Shown here in pieces: positions 9,001-15,000 of a stretch of 64,000 nt of DNA. Made by a program: the position numbers. Source of the stretch: Escherichia coli O157:H7 (GTDB lineage Bacteria > Pseudomonadota > Gammaproteobacteria > Enterobacterales > Enterobacteriaceae); assembly GCF_013167455.1 (NCBI RefSeq), contig NZ_CP038332.1; one strand, written 5' to 3'. Positions within the stretch are counted from its first letter, which is position 1. The number at the start of each line of letters is the position of its first letter.

Positions 9001-12000
9001 GAAAGAATTCCGGAGACAACATCCAGCCCATCCCCCAGGGGGCCCAGGTCTGGTAAATTTTGTAATTTCCCACCAACAGAACTTAATCGAGGTTTACTGG
9101 ATAAAAATGAGCCAAGCTGGTTAAGCTGCTCAGAAAATGAATCAACGGTACTGTTTATACTTGATACTGTATCTACAAGCTGATTAATAAGTTCAATACT
9201 ACTTTTGGCAATATCATTCTGACTTATATCCTCTCCTTCCCGTTGTTTTCTCAGCAATTCATCAAGAGCCATGCCTGATAAAGCAATCCCCGTAAAATTC
9301 TGTAGTGCTGAGAGAACTGTTCCGGCTTTTCCCAGATTATTACCTACATTTTCAGCGGTTCCTCCTATTTTACTCCCAACTTTCTGATACTTCTGCAGAA
9401 GTTTGTCAAGTTGTGGTGCGAATATTGCAACACCACGTTCAGTTAATCCTACAACTTTTTCTGCTGCACCAAAAAACTGGTTTGCAATCGCTGTATCATC
9501 TCGTTCAGTACGGTGTATTTCTATTCCAAGCTCATCAGCAGCTTTGACCAACTCATTAATACCCACGCCCTGAGCTTCATAATTATCAGGTATTAATAAT
9601 ATGAGTTTTTTTCCAGCGGAACGTACGCTTGATGATGCTGTATTAAATGCTGATTTTGTAGTCAATGTCGCATTATTGAAAATGTTCTTTATTTTATTTA
9701 CTGTCATATTAGTTTTCTTTCTCAATATTAAAATTAAAATCTTGTCTGTTTTTTACTTCAGACATAAGTTCATGATGGTATTGCCTGAATATTTTTGATG
9801 CCAGTTTTTTATCTATCCCCCCTCCATGAAATTCAGCTATTTTTCCTGTTTTACTGCTCTCATCTAACCTTATTGCTCTGAATAACTCATAAGGATACTT
9901 TTTCCTCATGTATTTATATAACTCCATGTTGTGTCCAAATGGAGCTATCCAGTCAATAAACCACTTTCTTTCTCCCGACATCCAGTCTTTTGCATACAAA
10001 GATGTTACATCATTTATATATTTTACCTCACATTCCAGATCTAAACTGGCCCAGCTACAAAAAGCTACAGGAAGCTCATCCTTTATTAAGAGAGCAAATT
10101 GATTTGTCTGAATAGCAGGTATGACATTAATAGCAAAAACAGATAATGGCCATTTTTTATGCAGAGGAGAACAGGCCCATAGCCATGCAACCTTCCCCAT
10201 GACGTCAAAAGCATTAGATTTCATAATGTTTAAATAAATAAGAAAACTCAGTAAATGTAAAGAACCCTATATAAAAGAACAGAAATTATATCCTTTTAAG
10301 CAAGAAGCATCTAAAAACAGAAAGCTACCGCAAGGAGAATCTCTCCCAACCAAAACAACATTAGCGATAATAATATATTGCCTAAACATTCTTACACATA
10401 TCACAGCTAAGTTATATTATAACACTCAGATGATTGATTTGTAAGATAACGTATGATTTTCATATGAATAGCCACGTGACAAATGCCTTATTAAAGAGAT
10501 TGTAAACAGAATACAGCAAACTATTTCAGTTACCGAAATGACGAGTTAATCAGTTTTGTTTACCCTGCAAACACAAAATCTAAACCTACACAGAAAAGCA
10601 AACCTCTCCTGTTAATAATAAATCTCTTCCGGTATAGCTGGAGTTTTTTCAAATGCGCCTATAAGGCTCTCTTACCAGCCGAGCCATAACAGGCGCACAC
10701 GATCTGACATTTGCATCCAACTTCGTTACTTACGGCCCGTAAATCGGCTGACGGGATGTAGTGGTCAACAAAAACTGGCCACCGCTTTAGAGTTTTTCCA
10801 GTATCGGTTTTCCGATTCATTTGGTGGCAACCCACCGTTATATTCGTGCGGCCTGAGCGCGTTGTAATACCCAACGATATAGTCCGTTATTTCATGGGCA
10901 GCATCGCTGAAGTTCATGTAACCCGTCACCGGTATCCACTCGTTTTTCAGACTCCTGAAGAAGCGCTCCATCGGGCTGTTATCCCAGCAATTTCCTCGTC
11001 GACTCAGACTCTGTTTGATCTGGTAACGCCACAGTAACTGCCGGAACTGCCTGCTTGTATAGTGGCTGCCCTGATCGCTGTGGAACATTACCCCGGCTGG
11101 TTTACTGCGGATTTCCCAGGCCATTTTCAGCGCTTTGATGGTCAGTCTGCTGTCCGGAGAGAACGACATTGCCCAACCTACCGGTTTCCTTGCAAACAGG
11201 TCGAGAACAACGGCAAGGTATGCCCAACGTTTCCCCGTCCAGATGTACGTCACGTCGCCGCACCATACCTGATTTGGCTCTGTCACTGCGAACTGCCGCC
11301 CAAGGTGATTCGGGATAGTGACATGTTCACGACCACCTCGTTTATAACGGTGCGCAGGCTGCTGGCAACTGACCAGTCCCAGTTCTTTCATGAGCCTGCC
11401 GGCAAGCCAGCGCCCCATTCTGAAGCCTCTCAGGGTTGCCATTGTGGCGATGCTTCTTGCCCCGGCAGAACCATGGCTGATGTTATGCAACTCAAGTACC
11501 TGACTGCGTAATACAGCCCGTCTGCCGTCTGGTTTTTCAGGACGGTTTTTCCAGTATCTGTAGCTGCTGCGATGAACCCCGAACACATGGCAGAGTGTGA
11601 CCACAGGATAATGCGCTCTGAGTTTCCCGATTATCGAGAACTGTTCAGGGAGTCTGACATCAAGAGCGCGGTTGTAGCCTTTTTTAATATTTCATTCTCC
11701 ATTTCAATGCGTTGTAGCTTTTTCCTCAGCTCACGTATTTCGATTTGTTCTGGTGTTATCGGAGAGGCTTTTGGTGTTTTGCCCTGACGCTCATCACGCA
11801 GTTGTTTGACCCATCTTGTCATTGTGGAAAGGCCGATATCCATAGCTTTGGCGGCATCTGCCACCGTGTAGTTCTGGTCAACAACCAGTTGAGCGGATTC
11901 GCGTTTAAACTCTGCGCTGAAATTTCTTTTTTTCATTGGAGCACCTGTGTTGTTCTGAGGTGAGCATATCACCTCTGTTCAGGTGGCCAAATTCAGTGTG

Positions 12001-15000
12001 CCACTACAATCATCATGCCTTCAGCCACCACTACAAGGGAAGACCCATTTTTATTCATGCTGTTTACCTCTTTCTCAGGGAGTTTAGTCTCCAGGATTTC
12101 CGGGGCGGTTCATATTATCCACGACCCCTTGCCAATAATTCACCGATAAATGGGACCAGCCGCCGATTGAATTCTCTGCATTTTATATACTCAGGCGTAC
12201 TGTCCCTAGTCAGACGCACATAGATATCATCGCTGTGTTTACGTATATCCTCCTGAGTTAATGACTGCCACCCTTTCCCGATAGCGATCCGGTTAGCGAC
12301 ATTTAGGATCGACTGTTCATCTGGTAAATCACTACGGTTACATCTCATTTTCAGATACCGTGTCGCAGAGACAATCGACGCCATTTGTTCCAGTTGTTCG
12401 CTCGGAGGAACAGTGGCCTGCTTATGGATGGAGGGTGACTGATGACAACCAGAGATAGTCACTAAGACTAGTAATGACGCGATACAATTCAGTTTTTTCA
12501 AAATATTACCCATCATTTTTTACTAGGTATCGTTTAACCTGATACCGGTTTACAACAGTTCTTTTATCCGCTGAGCCGTTTTTATTACTAGCCCCGGTAA
12601 CCGAACGCTACATCAACAAAAAATGGCACACTCCGCTCAAAGCGAGCCACGGCCCAAAAGGCAGCGGGCGGGTAAAGTCCGTAGCTGTTACAATACGCAA
12701 CAGTACTGTTACGATTAACCCACTGACTGAGGCAAACAAAAGTATTGAGGGTAATGCCTGCCAACCCATCCATGCTCCCAATGCCGCAGCTAGCTTAAAA
12801 TCACCGTAACCTAACCCTTCCCTCCCGGTAGCGAAACGAAAAAGCCAGTACAGTCCCCACAGACAGAGATACCCAGATACCGCCCCCACTACCGCCTCCT
12901 CTAAGGTGACAACGCCTCTCTGTAAACTGAATAACAGGCCAAGCCAGAGCAATGGCAACGTCAGCACATCCGGCAGCAGCGCCGTATGGCAGTCAATAAC
13001 CGCCAGAACCAACAGCATGGAAATAAAAAGCCAGGCAGCCGCTAATGTCAGCCCTGGTGGAAACCTGCTCGCGGCCAGAATGAATAACACTGAGTTCGTT
13101 ATTTCGACTAGCGGGTAGTAAACGGGAATACGCTCGCCACAACAGCGTGATTTCCCCTTCAGAAATAGGTAGCTTAACAGGGGAATGTTATCCCTGATGC
13201 CGAGCGGATGAAAACAGCAGGGACAATGAGACTGCGGTATCATCAGGTTAAAGGCCGGCCCGGACTCAGGCACAGAATGTGCCAATAGCGTCAGCGCTTC
13301 ACGCCGCCACCGCCTCTCCAACATTATCGGCAGACGATGAATCACGACGTTAAGAAAACTGCCGGTAACGCCCCCCAGCCCTCCGGTGCAGATGAGCCAC
13401 AACAAGGGATAATCAACCGCAAATTCCGGCAAACTACTCACACATCCTCCTTTATAAGTCCAATTTTTACATCAAGCATTAATCTGTAAATTACGACATC
13501 AGCGACTAAGCGAAGCGTCCTTGTTTACGTCATCTTGGGACAAAACCAGCCGATTAACCGTTACCTGTCCGGGTGGGTTGCCCTGCGCGGCCACATCAAA
13601 TACCATGGTACGAATACGGTGCCGACGCTCCAGTTGCGTAAGCCACTGCATCAGCGCATTAAATTCAACCGGGGCTAAGGTGACGGCCAGACGCTCCCCT
13701 TGAGGCTGCAACCGGGTGACCGATACACCGTATGCGGCTGAAGTACGTGTCACGGCCGCAGATAAACCTAACGGCTCCCCCTGTTCAGGCATACTTGCCT
13801 CCCGTCTCTTTATGTTGGGTACCTGTTGTTTCATCCACTCCACTGTGTTTTTTTCACGGGTAACTACAGTCCGCCACTTATCCTCTCGTATCAGCCAGGG
13901 CTGCCAGAGGACGTAATAGACAAAAACAACAACCAGTAAGGCAACACATCCGATAAGCAGCCTGCGCTCACGGGGGCTAACATACTGCAAACGTTTTTTA
14001 AGCTCGTTCATTGTTCACTCTCAGGATCAGACGACTTTCTACCCCCTGCGGCTGCTGTCGTATCTCACCAGGCTGGATGAGGTATTTTTCTCCGGCGATC
14101 TGCTGAAAGTGTTCCAGCGCCTGAAAAGAAGCCGCCTGCAAATCAATTTTCAGTGTCTGGCTGCTGCTGTCCCAGGCGAGTGCCTGTAAGCGTATCGTTG
14201 AGGTTTCTGACAGCAGTTGCTGAAGCTGGCGCATCACGCTCCCGAGTTCCGGTATATTGTTACCCGTCGACTGTTGCAGATGTCTCAGCATCTGCCGGCG
14301 GGGATCCTTCACCGCCTTTTCACTCGGAAACAGCTGCTGATAGACACGTACGCTCTCATACCGCCAGAATTGAGCCTGCTGCCAGAGCCGATAATGTGCC
14401 AGCCCCGCGTTGCTCCCGGCCAGAAAAACACAGGCCAGCAGAGCCCCTGCGACATACCTCCATGGGCGAAATCGTGCATACCATGTTCCCTGGCGGGCAA
14501 ATTCTCCCTGCCGCAGATCTGCGCCATCATACCCGTCACCTTCGGCCACCAACTGCAGCAGATCGCGTCCGGGCTGATTTCGCCACTCAGTGGTCTTCGG
14601 ACCCGGGCACGGTACTGGCGGCACGGAGTAGGACTCAATCACCGGCGGCGCAGTAAGAGACAAGAAATGTGTCAGCCACGATAACTCTACCGTCATCCCG
14701 GCGTAACGATCCCGGCGAAACAGCCACTGCCCGGCAAGCTTTACGGCACTCCATCCTTCAGTTGCCAACGGCAGCATCAGTACGTCAGGCAGCAACCTCA
14801 CCTCCCGAACCCCAAGTTGTCCACAGTACGCTAACCAGCGATGCATAACCGCTTTTTCGACCACCGCCACATCACACCTGTCACCCGACTGATGAAGAAT
14901 GGCGAAGTGCAGCTGCTCAATGTCTGTCGCCAACTGCTCTTCCAGAAGAAAGGGCAGCACCTGCAAACGCTGACGCCACGTGCGGTGTGGCAGCGTGACC

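Follow-up and report, generated by a model that had tools for sequence, protein, structure and literature searches.

Between its haemolysin (ehx) and type II secretion (etp) genes, the virulence plasmid pO157 of Escherichia coli O157:H7 carries a complete insertion sequence (IS) of the IS911 kind, an old and fixed copy that in all likelihood occupies a deletion or recombination joint rather than the site of a simple insertion. The copy was analysed in a stretch of 64,000 nucleotides of pO157 (contig NZ_CP038332.1; hereafter the window), which has the same coordinates as NZ_CP028608.1 and is the reverse complement of the Sakai record AB011549.2. The presence of an IS911-like element between ehx and etp has long been known (review PMC9420067), and the Sakai record, in which the open reading frames (ORFs) of the element are labelled IS911, places hlyC/ehxC on one side of it and etpO on the other. 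Hundreds of E. coli O157:H7 plasmids of ~92-95 kb contain the element and both of its flanks with 100% identity, some of them at the same coordinates, and each pO157 record holds one copy of the element.

A complete element that lacks a target-site duplication

The element (Table 1) begins at 10757 with TGTAGTGGTCAAC and ends at 12008 with GTGCCACTACA, and its genes lie on the minus strand. Read directly from the window, its flanks are GACGGGA on the left and ATCATCA on the right. An earlier note on this DNA had remarked that the adjoining triplets, GGA and ATC, do not match and that the copy therefore has no target-site duplication (TSD), while allowing that redefined ends might reveal a repeat of 3 or 4 bp. 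The mismatch was confirmed by a scan (k = 2 to 9) in which either end was shifted by up to 4 bp: no direct repeat of at least 3 bp was found within these shifts, only chance matches of 2 bp. The ends were fixed independently as well: the chromosome of E. coli SC477 (NZ_LR778152.1) contains a copy, 99.6% identical to that of pO157, with exactly these tips and with ATT on either side. A related ISEc52 copy lies between two CTG triplets. The element family generates duplications of 3 bp, and their presence around the SC477 and ISEc52 copies shows that the missing TSD belongs to the history of the pO157 copy and is not a property of the element.

Among chromosomal copies, a widely shared one (loci L008 and L020; IS911 in PGAP), located beside a truncated DUF2254 gene, was also found without a duplication (TCT versus GCC), so that copies of the family lacking a TSD are not rare. 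The slippery run of the L008 copy is A5G, not A6G. Missing duplications at IS-mediated deletion and recombination joints are textbook IS biology.

The flanks are remnants of different insertion sequences

The left flank consists of two pieces. An IS200-like fragment, comprising the right end and the last tnpA codons, extends from the upstream region of ehxC to about 10744, where the identity to IS200 falls sharply in the alignment. The 12 bp that follow, CGGCTGACGGGA, adjoin the element directly and match an IS629-like copy (window 41418 onward, and the plasmid of locus L002) at 11 of 12 positions, versus 8 of 12 for IS200C. Judging from this comparison, they most likely stem from inside an IS629-like element and are less likely diverged IS200; an assignment of the whole left flank to IS200, up to 10756, was dropped because of the better fit of its last 12 bp to the IS629-like interior. 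Non-O157 ehx plasmids of the kind found at L002 (L002-type, e.g. NZ_CP027473.1) are 99.2% identical to pO157 up to ...GGCTGACGG, past which they carry ~700 bp of an IS629-like element, as far as the left end of that element.

In pO157-type and non-O157 ehx plasmids alike, the IS200 fragment upstream of ehxC breaks off at almost the same position (window 10745-10754; L002 4490-4499), and the 10-mer at this cut in the window, CGGCTGACGG, is identical to the IS629-like interior. The two types of plasmid may share the joint between IS200 and the IS629-like sequence by descent, or the joint may have arisen through the 10-bp microhomology. A chromosomal hit, H279, in which IS200 and IS629 pieces lie 645 bp apart, was set aside as an unrelated arrangement.

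On the right, the element abuts the outer 38 bp of an ISKox3-like element of the ISL3 family, including its terminal inverted repeat (IR), and beyond this stub lie the first 66 bp of an IS629-like element of the IS3 family. As read in two copies, ISKox3 ends in GGGTCTTCCC...GGGAAGACCC and has 8-bp AT-rich TSDs. The 66-bp IS629-like remnant, the counterpart of which in pSFO157 was noted by Rump et al. (PMC3271280), is interrupted by the ISKox3-like stub, stops 2 bp from the etpO stop codon and differs from the IS629-like element of L002 at 3 of 66 positions. Neither flank continues across the IS, and the rest of each of these truncated elements, IS200 included, is absent. An exact-pattern scan of species-representative genomes gave no match for the IS200-like/IS629-like left flank and none for the 38-bp right flank.

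Other IS629-like pieces are present in the window: a left inverted repeat (IRL) at 40817, positions 279-709 of the element at 41418-41848 on the minus strand, and positions 1-306 at 55097-55402. These several IS629-family fragments on the plasmid are possible recombination partners.

A probable deletion or recombination joint at the tip of the element

The earlier note had favoured recombination or an adjacent deletion over a simple insertion, and the flanks lend weight to this view, as they turn out to be different truncated elements with their remainders missing. Neither end of the IS has lost a single base, which puts the breakpoint at an IS tip, the signature of an IS-mediated event. Moreover, in a complete IS that lacks a TSD and whose tip is also the point at which its neighbours are cut, an IS-anchored deletion or a recombination between two copies is to be expected. 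One event at the tip explains the truncation of the ISKox3-like and the IS629-like elements together. With known cases of IS-anchored adjacent deletion and recombination the joint shares the complete IS, the flanks of different origin, the breakpoint at the tip, the missing duplication and the truncated neighbours.

The ends, the lack of a TSD, the make-up of both flanks, the shared junctions, the IS30 site and the scar can be seen directly, and we infer in which order the events took place and how the deletion came about. The element would originally have inserted into a dead neighbour: at 38 bp from the tip of the ISKox3-like element, or else into the IS629-like sequence beside the IS200 fragment. 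An event anchored exactly at one tip of the IS would then have taken away one copy of the duplicated target, and with it all but the present stubs of the ISKox3-like and IS629-like elements. Such an event could be an IS911-type transposase reaction, for example one in which a single end, or a tandem-dimer junction, attacks a site in the same molecule (single-end and tandem-dimer pathways are summarised for IS911 and IS30 in PMC9333248), or a homologous recombination between two like-oriented copies. The loss would come to ~2 kb if both IS629-like remnants stem from one element, and to more if they stem from different elements. The product would be a single IS with a left flank from the ehx side and a right flank from the etp side.

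Several observations weigh against this reconstruction. A chimeric query for the pre-deletion state, made of the ISKox3 interior and the right flank of the window, returned 0 PLSDB records at a coverage of at least 80%, and junctions of the ISKox3 interior with the right inverted repeat (IRR) or of IRL with the IS629-like interior were not found in metagenome contigs. Unlike in IS-anchored deletion systems, the event is read here from its junctions, with neither a precursor nor a reciprocal junction in PLSDB or the metagenome contigs, and the history is thus reconstructed, not observed. The left remnant is just 12 bp long, its assignment to an IS629-like element resting on the match of 11/12 versus 8/12, and the 3 differences in 66 positions from the L002 copy mean that the two IS629-like remnants may be separate elements, with a possibly larger loss. 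LSU-61, the plasmid of which lacks the IS, has been assigned a near-basal position in the O157 lineage (PMC7175801), and phylogeny alone would favour an ancestral IS-free state. Finally, the transposase and recombination routes give the same product and are inseparable at this joint.

An IS30 site and a scar within the element

The junctions of the element are the same in related plasmids. In pSFO157 (NC_009602.1, recognised by its traK::IS30 junction) the same element is found, with left and right junctions identical to those of pO157 and with IS30 inside it as GT-IS30-GT, and identical junctions are present in pO157_2-type plasmids and in a pO121 plasmid. The comparison with related plasmids that the earlier note had suggested therefore shows the junctions to be old and fixed, and their identity places the fixation before the split of pSFO157 and pO157.

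The sequence at 11671-11675 is GT-T-GT in pO157 but simply GT in the SC477 copy and in IS911. This insertion of 3 bp, which has no counterpart in the SC477 copy or in IS911 and which explains the length of 1252 bp, lies just downstream of the frameshift site, at the exact position of IS30 in pSFO157 and in the IS911 of E. coli K-12, and it is common to pO157_2-type and pO121 plasmids (100% matches). The three extra bases are the expected residue of a deletion between GTAG at positions 2-5 of IS30 and the GTAG just after IS30, and GT-T-GT looks like the scar of an IS30 loss. As an effect of the scar, OrfA and OrfAB gain one residue each, and the predicted stem, itself unchanged, comes to lie 9 nt instead of 6 nt from the slippery site.

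The IS911 of K-12 interrupted by IS30A (mentioned in PMC9333248) has IS30 at the same GT dinucleotide and with a GT duplication, as in pSFO157. However, the orientation of IS30 in K-12 is opposite to that in pSFO157, so that this insertion is independent, and in pO157 IS30 is gone and GT-T-GT is left. Because IS30 occupies the same dinucleotide in K-12 and pSFO157, this site inside the element looks like an IS30 hot spot. Following the rearrangement, IS30 would have inserted at this hot spot, a state that pSFO157 would retain; in the pO157/pO157_2 lineage, a later deletion between the 4-bp GTAG repeats would have removed it and left the scar.

Two variants of the element were observed in related plasmids. 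In pNZRM3614 (NZ_CP032794.1; L009 301-1793) it is 1493 bp long, with ~241 extra bases near the IRL side, and is annotated as a partial integrase-core pseudogene; the extra bases are probably a partial internal duplication. In pO121_CEC14159_1 (AP024476.1; L010 530-1785), a pO157-like plasmid of an O121:H19 strain, the IS junctions are the same and the IRL tip carries one A-to-G change (GCCGCTACA).

The IS-free joint of pLSU61-1

Plasmid pLSU61-1 (NZ_CP038338.1; L003 4490-4500) joins the two flanks without the IS, as GGCTGAC/AATCATC, a joint that is 1255 bp shorter than the corresponding region of pO157 and that also lacks GGG(A). It was found only in pLSU61-1, that is, once among 72,556 plasmids and once among 5,426 complete E. 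coli genomes. Strain LSU-61 has been described as lacking the nested IS30/IS911 and as an evolutionary intermediate with ancestral plasmid traits (Nyong et al., PMC7175801). If GGCTGAC/AATCATC were the empty site, pO157 would have arisen from an LSU-61-like plasmid by a simple, if aberrant, insertion that added 3-4 bases (GGGA) and made no duplication. Such an insertion would suit both the ancestral traits of LSU-61 and a difference between the two plasmids of exactly 1255 bp at this place. Nevertheless, we consider it improbable. Where pO157 has GACGGGA, LSU-61 has GAC, and the extra GG is shared by pO157 with L002-type ehx plasmids, which never had this IS. The missing bases, GG(G/T)A, fit the IS629-like interior and IS200, and an insertion would have to recreate them by chance. 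Moreover, the IS-free state is confined to one record per collection, and the alternative of a deletion needs one event with a microhomology of 2 bp.

This deletion, in which pLSU61-1 would have lost the whole element, is the simplest reading of the joint. One AC dinucleotide (10751-10752) stands 4 bp beyond a tip and another (12006-12007) 1 bp within the opposite tip, and a secondary, near-precise deletion between them would yield the sequence of pLSU61-1. In Tn10 and Tn5, slippage between short repeats that lie at the base of inverted repeats is the classic route of near-precise transposon excision. As in those transposons, the losses of IS30 and of the whole element each span an element with terminal IRs and leave microhomology at the joint (GTAG, 4 bp, and AC, 2 bp, respectively), although the microhomologies are very short here. 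Both losses were presumably host-mediated and not transposase-mediated.

A flap-ligation variant of IS911 integration chemistry, in which the 3-nt spacer of a circle junction replaces one copy of the TSD, was considered and rejected: it predicts either GGCTGACA-xyz-IS or IS-AATCATC, and neither matches pO157 and LSU-61.

Targeting by an inverted repeat and the setting of the ends

The ISKox3-like stub contains, on the minus strand at 12028-12035, the 8-mer TGTAGTGG, which is identical to both tips of the element and in the same orientation; canonical ISKox3 reads TGTTGTGG at this site. The 8-mer may be a coincidence or a hint of IR-like target choice. An insertion drawn to the ISKox3-like terminal repeat by its likeness to an IS911 end, through an OrfA-dependent switch of specificity of the kind described for IS911 and a branched intermediate, could dispense with a duplication, and RecG-processed targeting next to IS911 ends is documented according to passages of PMC9333248 and PMC7986276 that cite such work. 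We hold this origin to be very improbable in pO157, even with the 8-mer present. The resemblance is confined to 8 bp and a CTGAA motif, a pattern scan with TGTAGTGGNNNNC matches only the two real tips, and the loss of the remaining ISKox3-like and IS629-like sequence is left unexplained. Targeted events reportedly abut the target IR at a distance of a few bp, whereas the 8-mer lies 19 bp from IRL, which also counts against this route.

That the ends were mis-set, or that a 3- or 4-bp duplication has decayed by point mutation, is a general possibility to which only the length of 1252 bp, compared with the textbook 1250 bp, lends anything specific, and it has a negligible probability given the ATT-bracketed SC477 copy with the same tips, the lack of repeats in the end-shift scan, an extra length that is the internal 3-bp scar, and flanks that come from different elements and not from one interrupted sequence.

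Genes and family of the element

The outline of the element, TGTAGTGG...CCACTACA, shows imperfect terminal IRs of the 5'-TG...CA-3' type that is a feature of the IS3 family. Also in keeping with this family, two overlapping frames with a programmed -1 frameshift are present, and at the level of Pfam domains an N-terminal helix-turn-helix is followed by a DDE core. OrfAB scores 378 bits against the NCBIfam model NF033516 (IS3 family transposase), the cut-off of which is 160. In pO157 records PGAP annotates a programmed-frameshift transposase under the label 'IS3 family transposase', without the name IS911.

With IS911, a member of the IS3 group of the IS3 family first described in Shigella dysenteriae, the element shares a length of ~1.25 kb, the joining of orfA and orfB by a -1 frameshift at A AAA AAG, 36-bp IRs, the DDE (rve) core and a predicted downstream stem, and related copies make 3-bp duplications. 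The stem, a three-way junction, is predicted in both the pO157 element and the SC477 copy. The element differs from IS911 in its tips, TGTAGTGG (TGTAG) versus TGAAGTGG (TGAAG), and the pO157 copy also in its lack of a TSD and in its internal scar. Compared with the copies that PGAP names IS911, the element has 91.1% identity in DNA and ~92% in each of the frames OrfA and OrfB; its DNA identity to ISEc52 is 88.6%. The isoform thresholds of ISfinder are roughly at least 95% identity for protein and at least 90% for DNA. The element is probably a relative of IS911 and not IS911 in the strict sense. The description of the copy as an 'intact-looking IS911' can be kept for its frames, all present, its A6G slippery site and its two IRs, but needs to be amended for the 3-bp scar and, probably, for the name.

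The ehx and etp modules

The upstream region of ehxC extends rightward to about 10616, and the element sits between this region and the last gene of the etp cluster, in agreement with the earlier view that it separates the ehx promoter region from etp. The gene nearest to it on the etp side encodes a 133-aa lipoprotein, named etpO in the Sakai record and the GspS-family pilotin 'EptO' by PGAP, and the gene at 12608-13441 is etpN in the Sakai record and an A24 prepilin peptidase in PGAP.

Elsewhere the two modules are found apart. L002-type plasmids have ehx without etp, together with the same IS200/IS629-like joint, and the Shigella flexneri plasmid NZ_CP055220.1 has an etp-like cluster without ehx and with an IS629-like element after eptO. 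This separate occurrence indicates that the element marks a seam between modules. In the Shigella plasmid (L004 3990-4090) the etp-like cluster is 84% identical, and the left end of the IS629-like element lies 16 bp further from the eptO stop than in pO157 (window 12047-12117). The IS629-like end after eptO in both plasmids reflects either an old shared neighbourhood or a recurrent target.

Table 1 Features of the window around the IS911-like element
Feature	Coordinates	Strand	Basis
ehxC, first gene of ehxCABD	9709..10224	-	ORF; Sakai pO157 and PGAP annotation
IS200-like 3' fragment (right end and last tnpA codons)	10617..10744	-	88-92% identity to IS200C/IS200F copies
12 bp directly left of the element, most likely IS629-like interior	10745..10756	-	IS629-like interior, ~positions 709 to 698
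Complete IS911-like element, IS3 family, 1252 bp, no TSD	10757..12008	-	Tips, alignments, flank scan
IRR, tip TGTAGTGG	10757..10792	+	24/36 positions equal to IRL; same tip as SC477 copy
orfAB fusion frame, 390 aa after -1 shift at A AAA AAG; DDE integrase core	10765..11936	-	Pfam rve, E = 2.5e-31
orfA, 101 codons and stop	11631..11936	-	ORF; Pfam HTH_Tnp_1, E = 1.9e-15
3-bp scar TGT	11673..11675	.	GT-T-GT in pO157 versus GT in SC477 copy and IS911
Slippery heptamer A AAA AAG, -1 frameshift	11679..11685	-	Sequence
IRL, tip TGTAGTGG	11973..12008	-	Tip comparison, alignment to IRR
Outer 38 bp of ISKox3-like element, ISL3 family (terminal IR, tip GGGTCTTCCC)	12009..12046	-	95% identity to ISKox3 end, ~1,200 plasmids
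First 66 bp of IS629-like element, IS3 family (IRL and start codon region)	12047..12112	-	Alignment
etpO (PGAP: GspS-family type II secretion system pilotin EptO), last etp cluster gene	12115..12516	-	ORF; annotation

Discussion

The rearrangement of pO157 described here is part of the ordinary mosaic history of plasmids and an event of a known kind, with no new element or mechanism. What is added to earlier knowledge is small: how exactly four IS remnants are nested, an IS30 scar, and the view of LSU-61 as the product of a secondary excision. The rearrangement explains one of the mosaic junctions of pO157, at which ehx and etp are joined through a stack of dead insertion sequences.

A broader proposal can be put forward only tentatively, namely that an ehx-bearing and an etp-bearing segment became joined at the IS911-like copy itself, through recombination or cointegration between two such copies, and that the plasmid of LSU-61, rather than being an ancestral IS-free form, derives by secondary near-precise excision from an ancestor bearing IS911::IS30. 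If this were true, the place of the LSU-61 plasmid in the stepwise model leading from O55:H7 to O157:H7 would need slight revision.

As the joint of pLSU61-1 cautions, a missing IS should not be taken for the ancestral state before the joint itself has been inspected. For lineage typing, the locus offers three small markers: the junctions of the IS911-like element that lack a TSD, the presence of IS30 versus its scar, and the LSU-61 deletion.

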